32,000 nt of DNA from Faecalibaculum rodentium (GTDB taxonomy: Bacteria > Bacillota_I > Bacilli_A > Erysipelotrichales > Erysipelotrichaceae). Location: assembly GCF_001564455.1 (NCBI RefSeq), contig NZ_CP011391.1:1860001-1892000 (forward strand), given 5' to 3'. The number at the start of each line of letters is the position of its first letter. Position 1 is the stretch's first letter. Positions 9,514-26,192 of the stretch are shown one piece after another. The translations under genes were made by a program, and so were the position numbers. The notes below the pieces were generated by a model. That model saw only the letters and a list, made by a program, of their open reading frames with translations. It ran no database searches and was not told the DNA's origin.

Positions 9514-10214
9514 ATGAGTTTCCTCTCTTTCAATATCCTGATCAAAGTCAGACGCCAACGGATCATGGTCAATATATCTGCATGACTTAGACTGGATTGG
9601 TTATTTGAATGTCGCCTATAATCAATCAGCGGTTCCTTTAAATATCTCACCTTCCCTGTCCTGCAGGCTGTCAGTCCAAGCCATTGATCATGCATCGGCA
9701 GATTTTTAGGGAACGGTAAAGCTCTATCCAACAAAGACCGTTTAAATGCCATACAGCAGCCAATGAAGGAATTGCGAAGCAGATTGTTCCAAAATCCTTT
9801 TTTTGTTCCATGCCATTGAAAATAAGACGATTCCAGTTCTGATAGATTTTCATCTATAATCCGGCAATCATGCAAAACCAGGAGAGTATCATCTTTTTTC
9901 AAAGCATCGAGTACAACCTTCAACTTTCTGCTGCACCAGATGTCATCCTGATCAGCAAGAAAAATATAATCGCCATGGGCTGCATTCAGTCCATTCTCAA
10001 CATTGCTTACAACTCCCTGACCTGGCCCTTTCAGCAGACGGATTCTTTGATCCTGAAACCCGGATATGAGAGATTCAGTCCTATCGGTGGAAGGGTCAAG
10101 GGAGATTACCAGTTCATCTCTCTCATCAAGCTGTTGAATAATGGAAGCTATTTGCGCTTCAATGAATTCTTCCCCGTTACAGGCTGCCATCACGACAGAA
10201 ACACGCCTATTCAT
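9510..10214 (-). CDS. Family 2 glycosyltransferase
   Basis: VSVVMAACNGEEFIEAQIASI, SLDPSTD and ADQDDIW motifs. 234 aa. Paralogous in its N-half to the next gene downstream. Confidence 0.8.
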   Translation of the reverse strand: MNRRVSVVMAACNGEEFIEAQIASIIQQLDERDELVISLDPSTDRTESLISGFQDQRIRLLKGPGQGVVSNVENGLNAAHGDYIFLADQDDIWCSRKLKVVLDALKKDDTLLVLHDCRIIDENLSELESSYFQWHGTKKGFWNNLLRNSFIGCCMAFKRSLLDRALPFPKNLPMHDQWLGLTACRTGKVRYLKEPLIDYRRHSNNQSSLSHADILTMIRWRLTLIRILKERKLI

Positions 10215-10968
10215 TCCAGAGTACCCCTGGATATCTCAGCTGAACAGCCAGATGTAGTTTGCGCTTGAATATCAGATATCTGGCTTTCCAACGTGCAGTT
10301 GAATAATATGTCAGCAAATCGCTTTTTTGTATTTTCAGTCGCTTTACAGCCGCTGCTAAATCCAAAATATCCGCGGAAAATGCCTGCTTCAGGTTAGTCG
10401 GAAGAATTTTAATTTTTTCCCCGGAATTTTTCATATCCTTCAAAAACTGGTGATCCACATAATCCAGGAACAGTCGCTCATCATAAGAGTAGGAATCTGC
10501 TAGCCTCTTGGGTATAGCCATACCGCTGTTGATTCCTGTAATCTCTGTAATTGATTCCGTTGACTGCACCAAATGTGGAATATCATGCTTCATTTCTGCA
10601 GGTGAAATCATCTTTCCGTTTGCCGTCATGACCACTGGAAGAAGAATGGCATCCGGTGATTCCATTCGTAGTTTTACCCAATATTCATCCGGAATTTCTG
10701 TATCATCATCCAGAAGCACAATCCAGTCTCCGGGTTTCTTGCGAAGCATATTAAATGCCGCGTTATAGGCTTTAGACAGCCCTTTGTTTCCATTCATAGA
10801 AAGAAACCAGGCGCCTGCCTGTCGGGCTTCTTCCTGGTTTTGAACTGATTCATCTGTACTGTTATCCACTACGAGAAGCTGTACATCTGACTGACTTTTC
10901 GCAGAACAAAACGAAGGACATTCTGAAAGATGTTTGTTGTACACGACCATCACAGCGTATATTTTCAT
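10207..10968 (-). CDS. Family 2 glycosyltransferase
   Basis: IYAVMVVYNK start, VVDNSTD and LLDDDTEIP (DxD) motifs. 253 aa. ATGA overlap with the upstream gene at 10965-10968. Confidence 0.75.
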   Translation of the reverse strand: MKIYAVMVVYNKHLSECPSFCSAKSQSDVQLLVVDNSTDESVQNQEEARQAGAWFLSMNGNKGLSKAYNAAFNMLRKKPGDWIVLLDDDTEIPDEYWVKLRMESPDAILLPVVMTANGKMISPAEMKHDIPHLVQSTESITEITGINSGMAIPKRLADSYSYDERLFLDYVDHQFLKDMKNSGEKIKILPTNLKQAFSADILDLAAAVKRLKIQKSDLLTYYSTARWKARYLIFKRKLHLAVQLRYPGVLWNE

Positions 10969-12074
10969 GCATCCACCTCATCCAGCGTTCTGAAAAAAGT
11001 CTCTTCCGAGAAGAATCTCTCATAGACTTCCTGCATATTGCGTCTTCTTCTCAGAGCCTGATCAGCTGGTTCATGACAGATCCTCTGCGCGAGTTCATCC
11101 AGATGATCACGGTCTACATTGAAACCCAGGTCGTACTTCTCCACAAGTTTCTCCGTGTCCCCACCTATGGAATTCAGCATTGGCAGACCACCAATCATGT
11201 AATCCAGAGATTTCATAGTCAGGCCAACCATGACATTGGGCTTGACGATATTCAGTCCGAAATGGCAATGATCAAAAATCTCCTGCTTGGCCTGCGGATC
11301 AAACAGAATACCGTGATCCACTACCTGCGCTCCTGTGCTTTGCACTTCTGAAATGAGTCGATCTTTTGTTTCCCCTTCTCCAATAATATGAAAACGTGTA
11401 GGTTTGATTTTGGTTGTTGCTTCCGTGATTTTCCGTATCAGACAGATATCAATGATATTGTTGATGGATCCCAGATAAACCAGATCCAGGGTATCGGCGT
11501 CCAGATGGGGATGCAGAGGCATTGGTTCCTGGGATCGGGCAAAGTGAAGAACGGTGTAGTCGTCATTTGCATTCAAGCCTTCCAGAAACAGTTCGCATTC
11601 CACAAAGACCTGGTCTGCATTCGGAAGGTTCTTGTCACGGAGCTTCTTCCACTCAGTAAAAACCGGCAGCCATTCAAATCTCTGAATAGGAAGAGCTTCC
11701 GGCCACAGATCATTGATATCAAAATACAGTCTGATATCCGGATGGTTCTTTTTGTAATGGCTCATGGTTTTGCACAGTGAGTTTGCAGGAACCATGGAAT
11801 GTATGATATCAGGCTGCAGCCCTTCCATGAGTTTCTCAGCCTTACTGGAAAACCGGAGATGGGAATACAGTCGTCTGAACGACAGATTCTTATAGTAAGG
11901 AGGAGTTTCAATCAACACATCCGCATCCTCCAGGGAGGAGATCCGCTGTTTTCTTCGATGAGAAAAATCGGAACTGATGACTGTCACTTCGTATCCCTTT
12001 GACGAATAGTACTTTTTCAAAAGTCTTACTCTGTCAAAGAATGTGTCATTGAAGCATACGATTGCGACCTTCAA
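10965..12074 (-). CDS. GT-B fold (GT4/GT1-like) glycosyltransferase
   Basis: 369 aa. MKVAIVCFNDTF... N-terminal Rossmann-like start and a C-terminal half with HIIGEGETKDRL and a LDYMIGGLPMLNS region, typical of GT4-type enzymes. Specificity unknown. Confidence 0.6.
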   Translation of the reverse strand: MKVAIVCFNDTFFDRVRLLKKYYSSKGYEVTVISSDFSHRRKQRISSLEDADVLIETPPYYKNLSFRRLYSHLRFSSKAEKLMEGLQPDIIHSMVPANSLCKTMSHYKKNHPDIRLYFDINDLWPEALPIQRFEWLPVFTEWKKLRDKNLPNADQVFVECELFLEGLNANDDYTVLHFARSQEPMPLHPHLDADTLDLVYLGSINNIIDICLIRKITEATTKIKPTRFHIIGEGETKDRLISEVQSTGAQVVDHGILFDPQAKQEIFDHCHFGLNIVKPNVMVGLTMKSLDYMIGGLPMLNSIGGDTEKLVEKYDLGFNVDRDHLDELAQRICHEPADQALRRRRNMQEVYERFFSEETFFRTLDEVDA

Positions 12075-12140
12075 AACTCTCCTCCTCCTTTCTTTTCACG
12101 ACATTCCAAATCAGTATATCACATTCAGATCTTTCAAAAT

Positions 12141-13868
12141 TCAGCCTTCCGGTACCTGTGACGGATCTTCCACAGACTGTCCGGGATTTTCGGGTTCTTC
12201 TACGGGAGGTTCAGTGGGCAAACCGGAGTCCTCAGGCACTTGAACATCCCATTGAGGCTCTTCATAGTACCAGGAAGGATCATAGTAGTCAGTTCCAGTC
12301 TCGTTGTTATACTCATAGCTCTCGGGAATCTGCTGATAGATGTCTTCTGTAGATTCCTTTGGCTCGGCTTCCGTGACCTCGTCTGCATCTTTTCCATCCA
12401 GAACCGCCATGATTTTGTCGTGGGCAAGCGCCACGGTATTCTGATCAAGAACAGTCACATAGGCTTCCTGACCCAGCGAAGGACAGAACAGGGTATCACC
12501 ATCGCCGGATACCTGATAGGACTCAAATTTCCAGTCCGGTATTGCCTGGATTTGATACTTGATGAAGTCTGTGATTTCGTCCTGAGAAAGCGTTGTATCA
12601 AATGCACTCTCCAGAGCCTTCAGCAAGCTGATGTAATTCACAATAATCTCCGGACTTGTTGCTTTGTTAAAAATTGCCTTCAGGACCATTTGCTGGTTTC
12701 GTACCCGCTGGTTGTCTCCATCTATATATGCATATCGCTCCCGTGCAAAGGAAAGAGCCCGTTCCCCGTCCAGATGATTCCAACCTTCGGTAACACCTTC
12801 CAGTGTGGAGTCTGCATAGAATGTCTCAACAGCCTGACCTTCCGGAACTTCAATATCAATACCGCCCAGACTGTCCACGATATTGGTCACACTGGAGAAA
12901 TTCACGCGGAATGTATAGTTGATCTCAATATCCAGAAGTTTCTCGACTGTTCTTTTTGTGGATGTGATTCCGTTGATGCCGGTATGGGTGATTTTATCCA
13001 GTTCACCTTCCGCACAGGCATAGGCATCTCCACAGTCCACAGGGATATAGGAGTCTCGGGGGATACTTGTCAGCAGAACAGTGGAAGTCATGGGATTTAC
13101 GGTCACAACCATATTAACGTCCGACCGGGACAGTTCCCCCACATCTCCATAGGTGTCATTTCCAGAAATCAGGATGTTGTAGGGTTTGGTTGTAACATCA
13201 GAAACTGCTAGAGCTTCATTGGTGGCGCTGGTCTTGAAATGAGCCTGGAATATGACTCTCGTCCTGGTTGAGAAATCTGCGTAATCCTCCAGCTCGGTGA
13301 CATTGGTCCGATATGCTTCATTGAGAATGACCGCATCCACATCCCCGTTATACAAAGCCATGGCTTCCTGCGGAACGGAATCCAGCTCGACCTGCTCAAA
13401 CTCCACAGGCATTTCTTTCTGAATCTGCTCGAGCGCCTTTTCCGTACCGCCTTTGTCAATGTTTTTCAGGATTCCGACTTTTTTACCGGAAAGGTTCTCC
13501 AGGGAATCAATATCAGACTCACTCATCACAATGACAGATATATTGTTGTCATTGGTATTTTTAATGGCGGTGATTGATGCCAAGGTCCCATTGGTCCTGA
13601 AAATGTAGTAAGCACCCAGCATGTAAGCACAGGACAATATCAAGGATATTGCCAATACTGTATTTGTGATTTTTTTAGAGTGTTTGAATTCCAGATTCAG
13701 CAAAACGAAAATCAGGCAAACCAATCCAAGAATCAACAGGAAGGGATAAAGAACAGTATCAGGCAGTACCCCCAAAGCATACATTTGATATCCGACAAAT
13801 GCCGTTGAGACAACTAACAAAATATACACAACCCATGTCCATGTTGTTCTGTTCTTGAGATATTTCAT
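12141..13868 (-). CDS. LytR-CpsA-Psr (LCP) family glycopolymer-peptidoglycan ligase, low-GC paralog
   Basis: N-terminal TM segments. LCP core ILISGNDTYG...SRSDVNMVVTVNP...LTSIPRDSY...INYTFRVNFSSVTNIVDSLGGIDIEVP...ERALSFARERYAYIDGDNQRVRNQQ. Acidic, Pro/Tyr-rich C-terminal tail. SD GAAAGG upstream of the ATG. Confidence 0.9.
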   Translation of the reverse strand: MKYLKNRTTWTWVVYILLVVSTAFVGYQMYALGVLPDTVLYPFLLILGLVCLIFVLLNLEFKHSKKITNTVLAISLILSCAYMLGAYYIFRTNGTLASITAIKNTNDNNISVIVMSESDIDSLENLSGKKVGILKNIDKGGTEKALEQIQKEMPVEFEQVELDSVPQEAMALYNGDVDAVILNEAYRTNVTELEDYADFSTRTRVIFQAHFKTSATNEALAVSDVTTKPYNILISGNDTYGDVGELSRSDVNMVVTVNPMTSTVLLTSIPRDSYIPVDCGDAYACAEGELDKITHTGINGITSTKRTVEKLLDIEINYTFRVNFSSVTNIVDSLGGIDIEVPEGQAVETFYADSTLEGVTEGWNHLDGERALSFARERYAYIDGDNQRVRNQQMVLKAIFNKATSPEIIVNYISLLKALESAFDTTLSQDEITDFIKYQIQAIPDWKFESYQVSGDGDTLFCPSLGQEAYVTVLDQNTVALAHDKIMAVLDGKDADEVTEAEPKESTEDIYQQIPESYEYNNETGTDYYDPSWYYEEPQWDVQVPEDSGLPTEPPVEEPENPGQSVEDPSQVPEG

Positions 13869-13985
13869 AATCTGCCTTTCTTACTCCCATTCACCTCTGA
13901 AGTCCCGGTTTTCCAACTTTCCGGATATCTGTATCAGTAAATACAAAACAATACTATGTCGGTCAGCACTGTCTCACTATCCGTC

Positions 13986-14014
13986 ATTCTAACATTTGTC
14001 TCATTACCTTGGAA
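13986..14014 (-). promoter_or_regulatory. Candidate sigma-A promoter for the glycan operon (TTCCAA-17-TGtTAGAAT)
   Basis: On the minus strand, an extended -10 TGTTAGAAT (13994-13986) and a weak -35 TTCCAA (14014-14009) with a 17-nt spacer, about 120 nt upstream of the LCP start. Eye-scan only. Confidence 0.3.
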
Positions 14015-19868: not shown

Positions 19869-19898
19869 ATTGTACGGAAAACCGGCTGCTTCTGTTAC
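19869..19898 (-). promoter_or_regulatory. Candidate promoter of the O-acylation operon (GTAACA-18-TACAAT)
   Basis: On the minus strand, -10 TACAAT (19874-19869) and a weak -35 GTAACA (19898-19893), about 28 nt upstream of the ATG at 19841. Eye-scan only. Confidence 0.3.
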
Positions 19899-20023
19899 TG
19901 AAAACAACAGAAAGTGCAGGTTTTTTTCTGCAGGGACATGCAGGCTGCTCCCACCAGCTCCCGGTAGGGAAAAGCATACATTGCATATGAGGGCAAGTCC
20001 CGGGAGAGTCTGGAATCGTGGCA

Positions 20024-20062
20024 GCAAAAAGGCCGGGCATCTGTATATTGACGATCCCGGTC
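20024..20062 (-). terminator. Weak terminator-like hairpin downstream of the degenerate gene
   Basis: CCGGG/CCCGG stem with an 18-nt loop, followed on the minus strand by CCTTTTTGC. Confidence 0.3.
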
Positions 20063-20093
20063 TGATCGAATCGAGTTTGCAGGACAGGCAGAT

Positions 20094-20942
20094 TCAGTCC
20101 GCTTTGTGGCGGGCCAGTTCGGCTTCCGGTTCCCGGATTCGCCTGTCGCGGTCTTCCAGCTCCCTGTCCTTCTCCTCCAGCCGGGTGCCAAAAACCTGAA
20201 TGCTGCCGTCATTGCCACACCTTCTTTTTCCATGTACTCCAGGGCCTCCTTCCGGTTTCTGTCCCGGAAAATGTGACCCAGGCCGTTCAGTGTTCTGTCC
20301 TCCAAATCGTCCCACTCCGGGTCGATAAATACAAATCTGTTCTCCACACAGGTCTCTGTGATACGGGAAAACTCCCTGATCACTCTGGCATTGCCTTGCC
20401 TTCACCTCCCAGGTGATGATGAGATCGTCCGAAAATATGGCTGTGGGATAGATCCAGAACATCTTCAGATCATTCAGTCCTGCGCAGTCTGTGTTCATGC
20501 CCTTGATCCGGTTTTGCTGCCCGGACATGCCTCTGGCAATACAGCAGTCATTCCGGTTGGCCATCACTTCAGCCGTTGGCATAGTATTGTTCACTGCGAT
20601 GATCACCACATACAGTTTCTCCGTCTCCATATCCTGTATTACGCAGACCTGATCATTGACTGTGGTTCCTTCCACCGCCACTGTGAGCGCAGGATCCATC
20701 GTCTCCATCTTTTCATTCAGGACCGCCAGCTCATTCGCTGCACTCAGCGGCATTCGAAACACCTCCCGTATCCTGCTGCTGAGTTCCCGTACCGTGAAGT
20801 CTGCGTATTCCGGACACATCAGCCTGAGCACCAGAGAAAATATCTGTTTGTCCTGAAGCATGGCTTTGGCCGCCTTGTCCCGTTCCGGTCTGTCCGGCGA
20901 TACCAGCTGTCTGGCGTTTGTTTCCTGTCTGTCTGCCACCAT
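20094..20942 (-). pseudogene. Twice-frameshifted, degenerate PD-(D/E)XK nuclease-family 'transposase'-like gene remnant
   Basis: Strong SD AGGAGG 7 nt before the ATG at 20942. The N-part, DKAAKAMLQDKQIFSLVLRLMCPEYADFTVRELSSRI...LYVVIIAVNN...LNDLKMFWIYP, follows the layout I recall for PD-(D/E)XK nuclease-family transposases, but the E/Q/K catalytic positions are replaced. Plausible sequence moves to another frame near 20385-20400 (IREFSRITETCVENRFVFIDPEWDDLEDRTLNGLGHIFRDRNRKEALEYMEKEGV) and returns near 20205-20225 (SIQVFGTRLEEKDRELEDRDRRIREPEAELARHKAD). Confidence 0.4.
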
Positions 20943-21209
20943 GAGTTTTCCTCCTGCCGCAATCTGCTTTCCAGACAGCACCACACCAAACAGCAGACTA
21001 AAAGCAATTTATCAGTCATATATGCTCGGATAATTCAGATATTGCGATTTTTCCATAATAATTCTGCCACCTTATCGTAGCATCTGCCCAATTCTGCGCC
21101 TGTTTTCCCTTACCGGCAATTCATCTTTCTGTCATATGACTCCCCCGCCAGCCAGAATACAAAACGCGGATTTGTGACAGGTGCATCACAAAAACTTCAG
21201 CCATACAGC

Positions 21210-21246
21210 GCAAAAAAGGCCGGGTCCCTTCCCGGGAAACCGGCTT
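21210..21246 (-). terminator. Rho-independent terminator after the RloB-like gene
   Basis: GC-rich stem GCCGG...CCGGC (21219-21223 pairs with 21240-21244) with inner CCC/GGG pairing, followed on the minus strand by CTTTTTTG (A-run 21212-21217 on plus). Confidence 0.6.
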
Positions 21247-21267
21247 TATCTGCCTGACTCAGTTGCG

Positions 21268-22218
21268 TTATCCAGTATGAGAATCCTTTTCAGCATCACG
21301 CAGATCTCTAATCAGTCTGGGTACAGCAGAACCAACCTGATTTTTCAGAAGCAGCGGATCTTCGGGAAGTCCACTGGCATTCGCCAAAGCATTATCCAGT
21401 TTTGAAAGAAGCAGGTTTGTATTCACGTGTTTCTTTTTGTAACCTGGCAGATGCTGACAAAGGATGAACTCCGTATAGGTTTTCTTTGCCCTCTTTCCTC
21501 CCATCTCCTGATTTTTCACTTTTCTGTTTTCCAGAATATTATCCAGTTCTGCCTCATTCAGTTTGCGAAAATGCAGCAGCAGCCAGAGCTCAAAACAGGG
21601 ATTTGTCGGACAGAATCTGATGTTCAAAGTATTGCATTTTGTCAGGACCTCATCGTACTGATTCTCTTTAAAACTGTGTCTGTCTCTATCAACAATCATA
21701 TAGATATGATCGGTTTTCCAGTCCATCGTGGGAGGATCGAATTCGAAGTTCAGAATGGCATTTTTAAGCTGTTCCTGATTTTCATCCAGCGACTTCAGCA
21801 GTTGGGAAACAGCTGAATCCACATCCTCAATATATCCGGAATCCATCTGTGAATCGGAACCCGGCATTTCCGACTGCAGCAGCAGGTCATGGATTTCCTC
21901 CTCTGACACCTGACACCCGGTTTCCGCATGCAGCTTGCGAATCAGAGATTTCCATGTGATTTTGCCTTCTTTGCATTCTTCCATAAACGCTGTAAGACAT
22001 TCCAGGACCCGAACGGGATTGCTCATCGCGTATTCTCTGCCTTCTTTCTCCAGAGGGACAAGCTCCACCAGCTGACTTAGCCTGCACTGAGCGGATTGCT
22101 GTTTCAACGCGGAGAAATATATACTTTCGGTTTTCTCTCCTTCAAAAGCAAGGAACACTTTTCGCAATGGACTGCGTGTACCTGAGCGGCGCACAGCATA
22201 CTCCCGTAATTCTCTCAT
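21268..22218 (-). CDS. RloB-like (Toprim-type) protein with an unusually long internal insertion; AbiLii/AriB-like partner
   Basis: N-terminal KVFLAFEGEKTESIYF (RloB/Toprim Glu motif), later IYMIVDRDRHSF (DxD) and FCPTNPCFELWLLLHF (RloB signature as I recall it). 316 aa, versus about 200 typical. ATGA overlap with the ATPase stop at 22215-22218. Confidence 0.7.
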   Translation of the reverse strand: MRELREYAVRRSGTRSPLRKVFLAFEGEKTESIYFSALKQQSAQCRLSQLVELVPLEKEGREYAMSNPVRVLECLTAFMEECKEGKITWKSLIRKLHAETGCQVSEEEIHDLLLQSEMPGSDSQMDSGYIEDVDSAVSQLLKSLDENQEQLKNAILNFEFDPPTMDWKTDHIYMIVDRDRHSFKENQYDEVLTKCNTLNIRFCPTNPCFELWLLLHFRKLNEAELDNILENRKVKNQEMGGKRAKKTYTEFILCQHLPGYKKKHVNTNLLLSKLDNALANASGLPEDPLLLKNQVGSAVPRLIRDLRDAEKDSHTG

Positions 22219-23597
22219 CCCGGTTCTTCGCCCTCAAAGGGAAATACTGAATGGAACACCGGTACACCACCATACCTGCCTTCCCGGTACGCTTTCTCAA
22301 TTACCTTGTCAAACCGCTCATTGTACTCCTCCATGGAATACAGATGAGAATTACCTTCCCTGTTTTTATTGATGAACCAGATTTCATCTCTGCGTACAAG
22401 ATCAAAATCCAACAGTGCAGATTCATGAGTGGTGCAAATCAGCTGCGATCTACAGCCGGATTTTCTCAAAAACAGTTTGACGAACCGATATACAAGATTT
22501 GGATGCAGGCAGCGGTCCAGTTCGTCAATCACAAACACTTTCTCTTCCTCAGATAGAAGCACATCCAGCAGATCCAGTATTCTGATAGTCCCTTCGGATT
22601 CATCTGCCAGTGTGAATTCTACATCTCCTTCCTTTCCCTGATGGACAAAAACCAGCTGTACGAATTTTTCCGTTTCGGCTGTCAAATGGCATAAATACAT
22701 GTCATTGCGGGTTCGAAACAGAGCCTGGGCTTTCATTGCAGGATCTTTATGACATCTGGTCCGGGATTCATCCAGAGCCTTTCGAAACACCTGGGCTTCT
22801 TCGGGCCTGAGACGGGAACTAATCTGGTCATATGTAACTTTCCGATGATCAATTCTCGTAATCCCGGTGTCAAAAGCCTGGAGCCAGGATTCCAGAGCGG
22901 AAGTCGGGTTATGTTCAATCAACTGAAAGTAATTGGTGAAGCTGGTCTCTGGCCAGATCACATTGAGGTCCCTGGCATACCACAGGAAAAGATCTTCAAA
23001 AACCCGCAGTTTCTCATTTCTTTTCAGAACCGATTTCAGTGTCCGGTTCATTACGTGCAACAGAAGAATATCCTGATCTGTCTGAAAATCCTCCAGATAC
23101 TTTCCCAGTGTATCCTTCGTATTTGACTGCTCCAGTTCACCTCCCACACGGAAAGTCCCTTTATCTGTTGACCGTTCAAACAACACCGTTTCCCCACTGG
23201 TGTTTTTTCTGATCAGCCACTCACATAAAACGGAACCGGAAGCCAGAAGTAATTCAAATCCATAGCAGTAGCAGATTCCATCCAGCAGGATTTCCATCTC
23301 AAAATAACTGGGCATGTTTTGGTTTCTGCGGCTGGTTCTGTCATACAATCCCGCCGTATCCGCAGGGACGCCACGAAGAACGCATGCTTTCATGAACTGA
23401 ATCGCTTTAATCAGATTGGATTTCCCTGATCCATTGGCACCATATATCAGAGCAGCCTTCAGAAGTGAAACATCTCCAGCTTTTATGGTTTGCTCCGGAT
23501 GTCTGCGGACCCGGCTGCCTATCAGGGACAGCTCATTGGTACGGCCTTCATCTTCATCAAAAGAAAGAAAGTTTTTGAAATTGAACTGTTTCAGCAT
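22215..23597 (-). CDS. ABC/SMC-like AAA_21-type ATPase (AbiLi/RloA/AriA-like)
   Basis: MLKQFNFKNFLSF start, Walker A YGANGSGKSN, signature-like ESEGTIRIL, Walker B VFVIDELDRCLHP, H-loop CTTHES, C-terminal EGRYGGVP. 460 aa. SD AAGGAG. Confidence 0.85.
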   Translation of the reverse strand: MLKQFNFKNFLSFDEDEGRTNELSLIGSRVRRHPEQTIKAGDVSLLKAALIYGANGSGKSNLIKAIQFMKACVLRGVPADTAGLYDRTSRRNQNMPSYFEMEILLDGICYCYGFELLLASGSVLCEWLIRKNTSGETVLFERSTDKGTFRVGGELEQSNTKDTLGKYLEDFQTDQDILLLHVMNRTLKSVLKRNEKLRVFEDLFLWYARDLNVIWPETSFTNYFQLIEHNPTSALESWLQAFDTGITRIDHRKVTYDQISSRLRPEEAQVFRKALDESRTRCHKDPAMKAQALFRTRNDMYLCHLTAETEKFVQLVFVHQGKEGDVEFTLADESEGTIRILDLLDVLLSEEEKVFVIDELDRCLHPNLVYRFVKLFLRKSGCRSQLICTTHESALLDFDLVRRDEIWFINKNREGNSHLYSMEEYNERFDKVIEKAYREGRYGGVPVFHSVFPFEGEEPG

Positions 23598-23614
23598 GGC
23601 AAATCTCCTTTACG

Positions 23615-23689
23615 AGATTTTATCACCTTTCAAATGAAATTTGTTCCAAAATACGCTTAAATCTGCATTTTTATGTGATTTTTTCACAT
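23615..23689 (-). promoter_or_regulatory. Upstream region of the ATPase/RloB operon: extended -10 TGATAAAAT plus a 17-bp palindrome ATGTGA-N5-TCACAT
   Basis: On the minus strand, TGaTAAAAT at 23625-23617, with no good -35. A perfect inverted repeat at 23673-23689 (plus strand atgtgatttttcacat) lies just upstream. Eye-scan only. Confidence 0.3.
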
Positions 23690-23705
23690 TTCATATGACG
23701 GATAT

Positions 23706-23746
23706 CCAAAAAAGGCCAGACATCCCTTTTCAGGAGGTCTGGCCTT
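23706..23746 (-). terminator. Strong rho-independent terminator after ftsZ
   Basis: 8-bp stem GGCCAGAC/GTCTGGCC (23737-23744 pairs with 23714-23721), 15-nt loop, then TTTTTT on the minus strand (23713-23708). Confidence 0.8.
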
Positions 23747-23762
23747 CTTGAACTGTCACTGC

Positions 23763-24938: not shown

Positions 24939-26192
24939 TTATCCTTCATCCGTCAGGACCACGCTCTTCATCTTCCGCGTGAATCCCCCGTCTCCATGGT
25001 GGCTCCGGGCATTGATCTGATCAATGCTGGCCTCTAGTTCGTTGTTGTTCACGGAAATCCGGTCATCGTGCCGGATCCGGTTGATGTCCATCAGGGCATA
25101 GACACTGCCCAGCAGGGACACAAAGGCGCCGTCACGGGCACCGACACTCGTTTCCACATACACTCTGGCCGGCGCGTTAAACGCCGGTTCCAGTTCCTTC
25201 AGGACCGGTATGTTGCTTCCCTTGCCCGTTACGATGTACTTGACCTTGCCCCGGTTCACGATTGGGGCACAGGCTTCGTTGATCCCTGCGATCCATTCCC
25301 GGATCCTGGGCACCACGGTTTTGGCGAGCTCCCCGGCCGTGATCTCCACGCGCTGGTCTTCCTTCTGTTCAATATAAATAATGACACTGCTGTCCTGCAT
25401 ATCCGTGGAGAAGCAGTTCTGCAGCAGCCGGAACGTGACTTCCCGGCCCAGGCGGTATTTTTTTCTCAGCGGTTCCATGAACCACATATATCCCTTGTCC
25501 AGATCGAAGCTGGAACGCAGCCGTCCGTCCTGGAAATACGTCAGCAGGGTGTGGTTTGCCTCCAGCTGCACCTGGATCACCGGACGCTCGCTGCTCTGTG
25601 CCAGTGCCGCTGTTTCCTGTGCCGCCGCGTAGGAGTCCAGCACCAGATCCAGTATCTCCAGATTGGCCTGCTCCACTGCCCGGGCATAGGCATACACGGT
25701 GTCCTTGTCGGCATACAGCAAATCGACATCCATGACGAATTCCTCGCACTGTTCGGACAGGGGCAGCTTCGATGAGGTTTCCCCGTTCACTTCATACTGG
25801 ATGCGGTTGGCATTCACAAACACCGCATCATCATCCCGGCGCAGCTGCTGTGCCCTGGTCAGCCCCTGCTGGATGTGGAACAGCCGTACGGTTTTTGTGC
25901 CGTCTTCGATGCCCACCCTGATTTTCTGAGACGAATCCTTCACGTTTACACTGGGGACAAGCAGCACAACGCGCTCGATCCTGTAGCCCAGCGCCGCCTG
26001 TGCAGCAGTCAGCGCCTGGCGTATGGACGCCACGACACTGGCTTCGTCCGTGATTGTCGTTCCGGAAAGCCCGGCTGCCGGCGCCCGCTCAATGCGAAGG
26101 ACATTTGCCCGGCCTTCATAGACTTCCATGACCGCCAGTCTTACTTCGCCATCCGCCAGCTCAAGCGCTGCATATACACGTTTTTTCGACAT
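24939..26192 (-). CDS. ftsA: Cell division protein FtsA (actin-like ATPase)
   Basis: 417 aa, located 9 nt upstream of ftsZ. Actin-fold pattern (YAALELADGEVRLAV..., ...VTGKGSNIPVLKELEPAF...) and a C-terminal basic amphipathic tail. SD GAAGGAGG. Confidence 0.85.
   Translation of the reverse strand: MSKKRVYAALELADGEVRLAVMEVYEGRANVLRIERAPAAGLSGTTITDEASVVASIRQALTAAQAALGYRIERVVLLVPSVNVKDSSQKIRVGIEDGTKTVRLFHIQQGLTRAQQLRRDDDAVFVNANRIQYEVNGETSSKLPLSEQCEEFVMDVDLLYADKDTVYAYARAVEQANLEILDLVLDSYAAAQETAALAQSSERPVIQVQLEANHTLLTYFQDGRLRSSFDLDKGYMWFMEPLRKKYRLGREVTFRLLQNCFSTDMQDSSVIIYIEQKEDQRVEITAGELAKTVVPRIREWIAGINEACAPIVNRGKVKYIVTGKGSNIPVLKELEPAFNAPARVYVETSVGARDGAFVSLLGSVYALMDINRIRHDDRISVNNNELEASIDQINARSHHGDGGFTRKMKSVVLTDEG

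Follow-up and report, generated by a model that had tools for sequence, protein, structure and literature searches.

We show here that two overlapping ORFs on the minus strand of Faecalibaculum rodentium DNA, in the order abiLi then abiLii according to the ORF list of the window (the whole 32,000-nucleotide stretch that was analysed), encode an AbiL-type ATPase and its RloB-family partner. With a probability of roughly 0.78, we consider this pair from a member of the Erysipelotrichaceae to be a self-contained, predicted anti-phage module of the AbiL family that was acquired horizontally and is present in part of the population. The central reading of the earlier note, an AbiL-like ATPase and RloB islet behind ftsZ, is borne out by family profiles, foreign composition and presence or absence among strains alike. 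The locus is an ordinary member of the known AbiL family, and its only odd trait is a fast-evolving insert of 80 residues in the putative nuclease. The genes and the motifs of their products are as follows.

22215 to 23597, minus strand: abiLi, 460-aa ABC-type (Rad50/SMC/OLD-like) ATPase; PADLOC AbiLi, Pfam AAA_21
21268 to 22218, minus strand: abiLii, 316-aa RloB-family, Toprim-like putative nuclease; Pfam RloB, PADLOC AbiLii
AbiLi motifs: Walker A GANGSGKS, residues 53-60; signature-like ESEGT, 333-337; Walker B VFVIDELD, 354-361; H-loop TTHES, 389-393
AbiLi Walker B/D-loop: residues 354-366
AbiLii motifs: FEGEKTE, residues 25-31; IVDRDRH, 175-181; NPCFELWLLLHF, 206-217 (NPCFELWLLLH, 206-216)

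The two genes are translationally coupled and have their own upstream region and their own terminator. They form one operon, being adjacent on the same strand with an ATGA at 22215-22218 in which the abiLi stop overlaps the abiLii start, and with a single terminator 3' of abiLii; the 460-aa and 316-aa lengths and the ATGA overlap had been described exactly before. The first protein matches the PADLOC AbiLi model over residues 1-450 (3.2e-77, 258 bits) and Pfam AAA_21 at 4e-31 (109.6 bits, cut-off 27). The second matches Pfam RloB at 2e-24 (87.2 bits, cut-off 31.5) along profile positions 2-195 of 195, and the PADLOC AbiLii model at 1e-17, its other PADLOC match being only a weak one to AbiJ. 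Searches with AAA_21, RloB and PADLOC models, which the earlier note had proposed as a check on itself, thus gave significant matches to both proteins, so its reading stands. The residues K59 (Walker A), D358/E359 and H391 of AbiLi, and E26, D177, D179, N206, E210 and H216 of AbiLii, are all present in columns that are invariant or nearly so among homologs; the motifs called earlier in both proteins could be located and coincide with the invariant columns of both families. The locus therefore holds the sequence features by which PADLOC/DefenseFinder define AbiL, namely an ATPase, an RloB-family partner, an operon and intact catalytic residues.

Structural comparisons place the first protein firmly. 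Its AF2 model (pLDDT 83.9) retrieves Rad50 heads (3e-10), the Thermus OLD protein 6P74 (2e-9) and also PtuA in Foldseek, and its profile matches 6P74 at 0.0017 in the PDB, where PtuA is matched too, as it is in the PADLOC search; the single AbiLi sequence gave zero matches against the PDB. AbiLi is an intact Rad50/SMC/OLD-type ABC ATPase. AbiLii is an intact RloB protein and a putative nuclease. Its AF2 model (pLDDT 90.7, pTM 0.87) would put E26 after strand 1 and D177xD179 after strand 3, as the strands and acidic residues are ordered in a Toprim fold. The RloB profile found only spurious helical-repeat matches in the PDB. That the pair might instead be a PARIS (AriA/AriB) system sensing anti-restriction proteins is suggested by the shared two-gene logic and by the match of the PADLOC AriA model to the ATPase at 3.7e-32. 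However, the AriA model is equal to the generic Pfam AAA_21 in length and aligns at identical coordinates (50-397 onto 3-304 of 304), its 110 bits fall far short of the 258 bits of the AbiLi model, and the second protein belongs to RloB and gives no DUF4435/AriB match at E<=0.1, which makes PARIS very unlikely here.

The non-coding elements around the genes are the following.

23706 to 23749, minus strand: ftsZ intrinsic terminator, an inverted repeat whose T-run GGCCTTTTTTGG is the left islet border
23598 to 23705, minus strand: abiLi upstream region, islet-specific, with a palindrome, a second inverted repeat and a Shine-Dalgarno sequence
23673 to 23689: 17-bp palindrome ATGTGAAAAAATCACAT, upstream of abiLi
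23601 to 23620: second inverted repeat, overlapping the Shine-Dalgarno AAGGAG at 23605-23610
21211 to 21245, minus strand: the pair's own intrinsic terminator, ending in GGCCTTTTTTG

Both the strong ftsZ terminator said to precede the pair and the pair's own terminator, put earlier at 21210-21246 and found at about 21211-21245, are present. The upstream region (23598-23705) contains no convincing sigma-70 consensus for an abiLi promoter. The palindrome pointed out before does exist, but as an operator it had to be discarded, since an equally good inverted repeat arises in 33% of shuffles of this 108-nt region, which is chance level.

It seems that the islet was brought in as a block, for which two further features are needed.

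21013 to 23705, minus strand: replaced block (islet haplotype), 2,693 bp, in place of a ~200-bp intergenic segment of islet-less strains
21013 to 21213, minus strand: diverged right flank, 201 bp, a version of the resident intergenic sequence that accompanies the islet

Firstly, the composition is foreign, and the low GC noticed earlier in sampled lines holds across the region: GC is 44-47% across 21000-23500 vs 53-59% in most flanking windows, and GC3 is 47-48% in the pair vs 69-75% in ftsZ, the GDSL gene and the PBP gene. Secondly, contigs with identical FtsZ show three states of the locus (pair present, pair absent, and pair plus next gene absent), from which it follows that this is a strain-variable islet and not a housekeeping gene. 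Of the contigs read with an identical FtsZ, about half lack the pair. Universal conservation of the pair at this position, with a backbone-like composition in relatives, was the outcome that the earlier note had set against its own reading, and the ftsZ-downstream comparison revealed variable presence and foreign composition. Only its position speaks for a housekeeping role of the pair alongside the division and cell-wall genes, under shared regulation with ftsZ, and we give that explanation a negligible probability in view of the strong terminator ahead, the composition and the absences just described.

The borders of the block are well defined. Homology with islet-less strains stops at 23705 at a site that is otherwise near-identical, and both borders are terminator T-runs that share GGCCTTTTTTG, the 11 bases with which the pair terminator and the ftsZ terminator both end. 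A 9-bp GTCATATGA repeat was considered as border and rejected, as the empty-site alignment puts the border at the terminator instead. The right flank is 98-99.5% identical among contigs with AbiL and only 63-69% identical vs those lacking it, and carriers differ hardly at all in the AbiL genes but by 1-4% in the flanks. No integrase, tRNA, Rfam match or terminal inverted repeats were found at the block, which contains only the two genes. Because integrase and tRNA are absent and the 201-bp right flank is diverged, the evidence points to import of the islet by homologous recombination.

On either side of the pair lie genes for division, the cell wall and glycans. The neighbourhood had been called housekeeping, a description that does not hold, given that the spot is strain-variable and lies beside a variable, low-GC cell-wall glycan cluster, which is likely a phage-receptor locus. 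Immediately downstream of the pair lies a gene for 359 aa that had been described as decayed and nuclease/transposase-like; the decay is real (a frameshift near 20395), but the suggested identity is not supported by any family match in Pfam, NCBIfam, PHROGs or PADLOC. It was also weighed as a third component of the system and set aside, having neither a family match nor a homolog beside other AbiL pairs.

The arrangement recurs widely, in that an AbiLi-like ATPase lies directly upstream of RloB in 78 of 80 loci from bacteria and some archaea, with gaps mostly of -26 to +18 nt. Related pairs adjoin other defence or mobile genes, among them a TIR protein, a prophage region and a transposase. Since the name RloB comes from Campylobacter hsd loci (PMC10440598, PMC13064643), the pair could in principle serve a type I restriction-modification system as an accessory of the RloAB kind. 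Against this, no hsd-type domain occurs among the scanned window proteins or in the precomputed Pfam annotations of the pair's neighbours, and no hsd or restriction-modification genes lie near related pairs in 10 sampled neighbours and three annotated contexts, so that we hold the accessory role to be highly improbable. The absence of hsd genes noted earlier is thus correct, but it is the rule in the sampled loci and not unusual.

The one odd trait of the F. rodentium pair is situated within AbiLii.

21727 to 21966, minus strand: insert-coding region, AbiLii residues 85-164, 80 aa

An extra segment in the RloB-like protein had been recognized before, though its extent was overestimated (about residues 45-165, as opposed to the measured 85-164). 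The insert is placed between strands 2 and 3 of the Toprim core, and is helical and acidic (16 D/E vs 6 K/R). It diverges faster than the rest of the protein, with 24% identity in the insert vs 47% in the core. Among pairs measured in species-representative genomes, 27 of 72 have the long RloB form, with inserts of about 60-94 residues, and approximately 50 protein clusters align over 97% of the query. Gut Firmicutes carry the long-RloB clade in great numbers, with at least 1,495 ATPase clusters (E<=1e-20). The prototype lactococcal AbiLii, at about 297 aa, may be a long form as well. The insert is a trait common to, and specific to, the long RloB proteins, which make up a large clade of gut anaerobes. 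When searched alone with phmmer against 1.84 billion representative proteins, it retrieved only itself and one fragment, with no homolog outside F. rodentium. The idea of an undescribed variant must accordingly be given up as far as a one-off is concerned, though by sequence the insert has no detectable homolog beyond the species.

More speculatively, the insert may be where regulation particular to the lineage, or contact with a partner, is most likely to reside. A tentative extension, which we think rather unlikely, is that the long-RloB pairs constitute an AbiL subtype of their own that lacks a separate description, in which the insert (about 60-94 residues, helical, predominantly acidic, rapidly diverging) is a module for control or specificity that varies by lineage; within such a subtype it might act as an autoinhibitory plug that mimics nucleic acid, as an ATPase-docking surface or as a phage-targeted surface. 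The ATPases paired with long RloB show no compensating indel, median lengths being 460 and 455 aa with differences of 1-4 residues. Among F. rodentium strains the insert shows no diversifying changes, the 0-2 amino-acid changes all lying outside it.

[quoted passage not shown] On the analogy of PARIS and OLD, a likely function of the pair would be that of an ATPase-controlled nuclease aborting infection. Following PARIS AriA/AriB, P2 OLD and the NetFlax AAA/TOPRIM pairs, an AbiLi oligomer would hold the AbiLii nuclease inactive until a phage-derived cue altered the state of the ATPase and freed or activated AbiLii, which would then cut an essential nucleic acid, either tRNA (as AriB and OLD do) or DNA. 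Such cleavage would halt growth of the infected cell and block phage production. The pair might also be mainly a selfish toxin-antitoxin cassette, with AbiLii as toxin and AbiLi as antitoxin, kept by post-segregational killing or hitch-hiking and having no real anti-phage role in its host. It is in favor of this possibility that AAA and TOPRIM_OLD/RloB pairs have been validated as toxin-neutraliser pairs (PMC10440598), that the AbiLii of F. nucleatum is toxic in E. coli (PMC3985639) and that the cassette has spread recently among strains. However, the prototype AbiL makes its host resistant to phage (Deng et al., 1999, cited in PMC13064643), related pairs keep the company of defence and mobile genes described above, and defence and toxin-antitoxin roles can coexist, so that we find a purely selfish cassette improbable and favor the anti-phage module. 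A point against the mechanism proposed above for the anti-phage module is that, in F. nucleatum, AbiLii was not neutralised by AbiLi supplied in trans, and that the AbiLii of L. lactis showed no toxicity in E. coli (Dy et al., 2014); hence the simple picture of the ATPase as antitoxin is not established for AbiL.

The F. rodentium pair opens no new category. Its main value is that of a clean, well-delimited natural example, a 2.7-kb block without mobility genes that is polymorphic in a mouse-gut commensal widely used for microbiome work and lies between ftsZ and the variable cell-wall glycan region. A compact, confidently modelled pair with a defined insert could be a test case for the regulation of split ABC ATPase/Toprim systems.

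Among known systems, Septu PtuA/PtuB and the PtuAB of retron Ec78/Eco7 share the related ATPase fold, but their effector is an HNH nuclease and not RloB. RloAB of the Campylobacter hsd loci has an RloB-family protein in common with the pair, whereas its restriction-modification context is absent here and in the related pairs sampled. The OLD family (P2 Old, class 2 OLD/GajA of Gabija) shares the ABC ATPase and Toprim logic, in line with the match of the AbiLi model to 6P74. In contrast to OLD and GajA, which are single polypeptides, and to Gabija, which also needs a UvrD-like helicase, the locus has two ORFs and no helicase neighbour, and hence neither the fused ATPase-Toprim nor the GajB helicase that mark Gabija and class 1-2 OLD. 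The NetFlax toxin-antitoxin pairs of AAA (node D29) and RloB/TOPRIM_OLD (D44/M70) contain the same domain pair; those from Clostridium algidicarnis and Streptococcus agalactiae are toxic and neutralised, in assays of toxin-antitoxin and not anti-phage activity (PMC10440598). PARIS is likewise a split ABC ATPase and Toprim-type nuclease and the best-understood mechanistic analogue, in which the nuclease is sequestered by an ATPase hexamer until a trigger frees the tRNase (PMC11464382, PMC12409363). Its effector is DUF4435, while the one here is RloB, and a FEMS 2026 review describes AbiLii and AriB as having no sequence similarity and superposing poorly in structure. The closest counterpart is lactococcal AbiL (L. 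lactis plasmid pND861, as modelled in PADLOC). The F. rodentium pair differs from it in being chromosomal, in an Erysipelotrichaceae gut bacterium, and related at the profile level only; tblastn against plasmids and phages gave no close lactococcal AbiL, the one lactococcal result being a prophage pair whose second protein is short (192 aa). Nonetheless, the two proteins, their order and their co-transcription are the same, and both PADLOC models built for AbiL are the best match for the pair described here.

The locus is compact: on the minus strand, the ftsZ stop codon is followed by a hairpin with T-run, a spacer, abiLi, abiLii and a second hairpin with T-run, as read from the ORFs and their surroundings:

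23706-23749, minus strand: ftsZ terminator, a strong hairpin and T-run after the ftsZ stop codon
Between this terminator and abiLi, minus strand: AT-rich spacer of 108 nt
22215..23597, minus strand: abiLi, 460-aa ORF
21268..22218, minus strand: abiLii, 316-aa ORF
About 21211-21245, minus strand: second hairpin and T-run, after abiLii

The abiLii start sits within the abiLi stop codon (ATGA), and a Shine-Dalgarno sequence, AAGGAG, lies in the spacer eight bases 5' of the abiLi ATG. GC across the pair is 44-47% against 53-59% in most of the windows that flank it, and GC3 is 47-48% against 69-75% in ftsZ, the GDSL gene and the PBP gene. The earlier note had described a pair of lowered GC, coupled through ATGA, that begins after the strong ftsZ terminator and has a terminator of its own; the ORF coordinates, both hairpins with their T-runs, windowed GC and GC3 bear this out, and every motif quoted for the two proteins was found in them. 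The 17-bp palindrome it reported upstream does exist but is unremarkable, since a third of shuffles of the 108-nt spacer contained an equally good inverted repeat. An inverted repeat at 23601-23620 (minus strand; AAATCTC-GTAAAG-GAGATTT) overlaps the abiLi Shine-Dalgarno and could, once transcribed, mask the ribosome-binding site; repeats of this kind also turn up by chance.

AbiLi matches the PADLOC AbiLi model (3.2e-77) and Pfam AAA_21 (4e-31; AAA_15 more weakly), and AbiLii matches Pfam RloB (2e-24; 87 bits, cut-off 31.5) and the PADLOC AbiLii model (1e-17). Neither protein has a specific NCBIfam model, and the existing NCBI annotation is the generic 'AAA family ATPase' and 'RloB family protein', as in the nearest database entries, which are 99% identical and come from Faecalibaculum rodentium. 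A secondary PADLOC 'AriA' match of AbiLi has the coordinates of the generic AAA_21 domain and less than half the AbiLi score, and Pfam and PADLOC profile searches gave no DUF4435/AriB signal for AbiLii. Structural matches of the AF2 model of AbiLi (pLDDT 83.9) are Rad50 and SMC heads (about 3e-10), the OLD nuclease 6P74 of Thermus scotoductus (2e-9), and PtuA from Septu and from retron complexes; 6P74 and PtuA were also found, weakly, in a profile search against PDB sequences. The AbiLii model is confident (pLDDT 90.7, pTM 0.87) and runs through strand 19-25, a helix, strand 51-56, helices, four extra helices, strand 171-177, a helix, strand 200-206 and a helical C-terminal part. In an alignment of 66 RloB homologs E26, D177, D179, N206, P207, E210 and H216 are invariant; the model places them directly behind strand 1, where strand 3 ends and behind strand 4, a predicted arrangement in keeping with the Toprim pattern. 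Both proteins retain intact catalytic residues, and their genes are tightly coupled.

The alignment of 66 homologs and a second alignment of ORFs from 72 genomic pairs agree that residues 85-164 of AbiLii have no counterpart in short RloB proteins (about 215 aa); the insert does not begin at residue 45, as the span of about 45-165 proposed earlier would have it. It lies between strand 3 and the helix following the conserved S-N-P motif. The insert is not peculiar to F. rodentium AbiLii: some 50 protein clusters, with lengths of 296-337 aa, align to 97% of the AbiLii query, and 27 of the 72 pairs, drawn from species-representative genomes, carry it, among them Lachnospiraceae, Clostridia, Treponema and other spirochaetes, Dialister and Methanomassiliicoccales archaea. 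ATPases partnering a long RloB share 35-43% identity with AbiLi and short-form partners 28-38%, so that the long pairs make up a co-evolving clade; no matching large indel was seen in their ATPases. Across this clade the insert varies from 59 to 93 residues, its pairwise identity is 24% against 47% in the core, and it is net acidic in 25/27 long forms (median charge -6). Because it is variable and acidic, a regulatory or interface role is more plausible than a catalytic one. When the F. rodentium insert alone was searched with phmmer against 1.84 billion representative proteins, it retrieved only itself and one fragment; the idea of an insert without homologs therefore holds for sequence but not for position and structure, where equivalents are many. 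A long-RloB clade with a fast-evolving insert is a modest point, apparently not discussed previously.

The architecture of the pair is conserved across phyla. Each related long-form pair stands alone as a two-gene unit, and the settings are unrelated to one another. That of Acetobacterium lies in a prophage-like region, and that of the closest relative between two giant unannotated proteins. The pair on a Selenomonas metagenome contig (L103:8001-8906 and flanks) lies within a surface-polysaccharide/glycan cluster (NeuB, NTP_transferase, epimerase), a placement reminiscent of the F. rodentium pair, which also has glycan genes nearby. Among ten neighbours sampled are a TIR protein, a DDE transposase, a radical-SAM enzyme, and spore-germination and HD proteins, and none is an hsd gene; R-M genes are indeed missing beside ftsZ, as noted earlier, but this is not unusual, as every locus sampled lacks them. 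ATPases similar to AbiLi are frequent on small plasmids, and a few phages encode them too. Two Methanomassiliicoccales MAG contigs (L042, L045) carry long-form AbiLi/AbiLii pairs at 27-29% and 35-38% identity, which implies that the module has passed between domains in the gut.

Look-up of the identical 370-aa FtsZ revealed three states of the locus:

State A, ftsZ - AbiLi - AbiLii - 359-aa-type gene - GDSL: contigs L009, L011, L015 and six more similar places
State B, ftsZ - 359-aa-type gene - GDSL, without AbiL: contigs L013, L014, L016-L018 and three more
State C, ftsZ - GDSL directly: contigs L010, L012 and one more

The exact AbiLii protein stands after ftsZ in all contigs carrying it, and the pair is present in roughly half of the contigs read with identical FtsZ, which refutes a housekeeping role. 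When the three states are aligned, the left border falls at 23705, directly after the T-run of the ftsZ terminator. Past the AbiL terminator, segment 21213-21013 is homologous to the DNA right behind the ftsZ terminator in empty sites, with 63-69% identity to them against 98-99.5% among AbiL-positive contigs; the segments next to it match nearly all contigs compared at 94-99% identity. The differing block is therefore 21013-23705 (2.7 kb). The ftsZ and AbiL terminators share their final 11 bases, GGCCTTTTTTG (23704-23714 and 21212-21222, minus strand), so that a short direct repeat flanks the islet; it could be a coincidence of two terminators or microhomology used in cassette gain or loss. 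The islet and its borders gave no integrase, transposase, tRNA, Rfam match or terminal inverted repeat. Between carriers, the flanks diverge by 1-4% and the products of the AbiL genes by 0-2 amino acids. The cassette is accessory and moves horizontally; we infer that it entered this site in a diverged relative and that homologous recombination through the conserved flanks has recently been carrying it from one F. rodentium strain to another.

Several neighbours deserve mention. The strain-variable orphan gene of the 359-aa type (19895-20984, minus strand) is frameshifted near 20395, and its presence is independent of AbiL. It has no match in Pfam, NCBIfam, PHROGs or PADLOC, which leaves the former label 'nuclease/transposase-like' unsupported. 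In the intact-looking copies (L015:11934-13013 and L016:9438-10490, on the contigs so numbered) the last 100 or so residues resemble out-of-frame sequence, so the gene may be decaying everywhere. A 417-aa gene (24939-26192, minus strand) occupies the place of ftsA, with the PBP gene on one side and ftsZ on the other; it has no Pfam match at E<=0.01 and none in precomputed tables, and its product is either a highly divergent FtsA or some other protein. Positions 1-14000 hold an ABC-transporter-dependent cell-wall glycan cluster (epimerase, WsaF-like protein, GT2 and GT4 glycosyltransferases, Wzt/Wzm, MBL-fold and LytR-CpsA-Psr proteins) of low GC (about 36-49% and mostly close to 40%; backbone about 51-60%). 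Past the first LytR gene, strains differ in which genes it contains, and the cluster may represent a variable phage-receptor locus beside the defence islet. In two F. rodentium contigs (L002, L004) the MBOAT gene region is called as a 480-aa opposite-strand gene (about 11579-13021 in L002, minus strand), probably a gene-calling artefact in GC-rich DNA.

L. lactis AbiL aborts phage infection by an unknown mechanism (PMC13064643). AbiLii of F. nucleatum is toxic in E. coli and is not neutralised by its AbiLi in trans, and L. lactis AbiLii is not toxic (PMC3985639). Pairs of an AAA and a TOPRIM_OLD protein behave as toxin and neutraliser (PMC10440598); in PARIS a Toprim tRNase is sequestered by an ATPase hexamer until a phage protein triggers its release (PMC11464382, PMC12409363), and P2 OLD is likewise described as a tRNase (bioRxiv 10.64898/2026.07.10.737580). 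By analogy, AbiLi would be an infection sensor controlling AbiLii, and AbiLii would cleave tRNA or DNA and so arrest the infected cell. The defining features of PARIS, of RloAB in an hsd context and of Gabija/OLD do not fit the F. rodentium pair, whereas it has every testable defining feature of AbiL, the assignment first made in the earlier note, and it belongs to this already known system.
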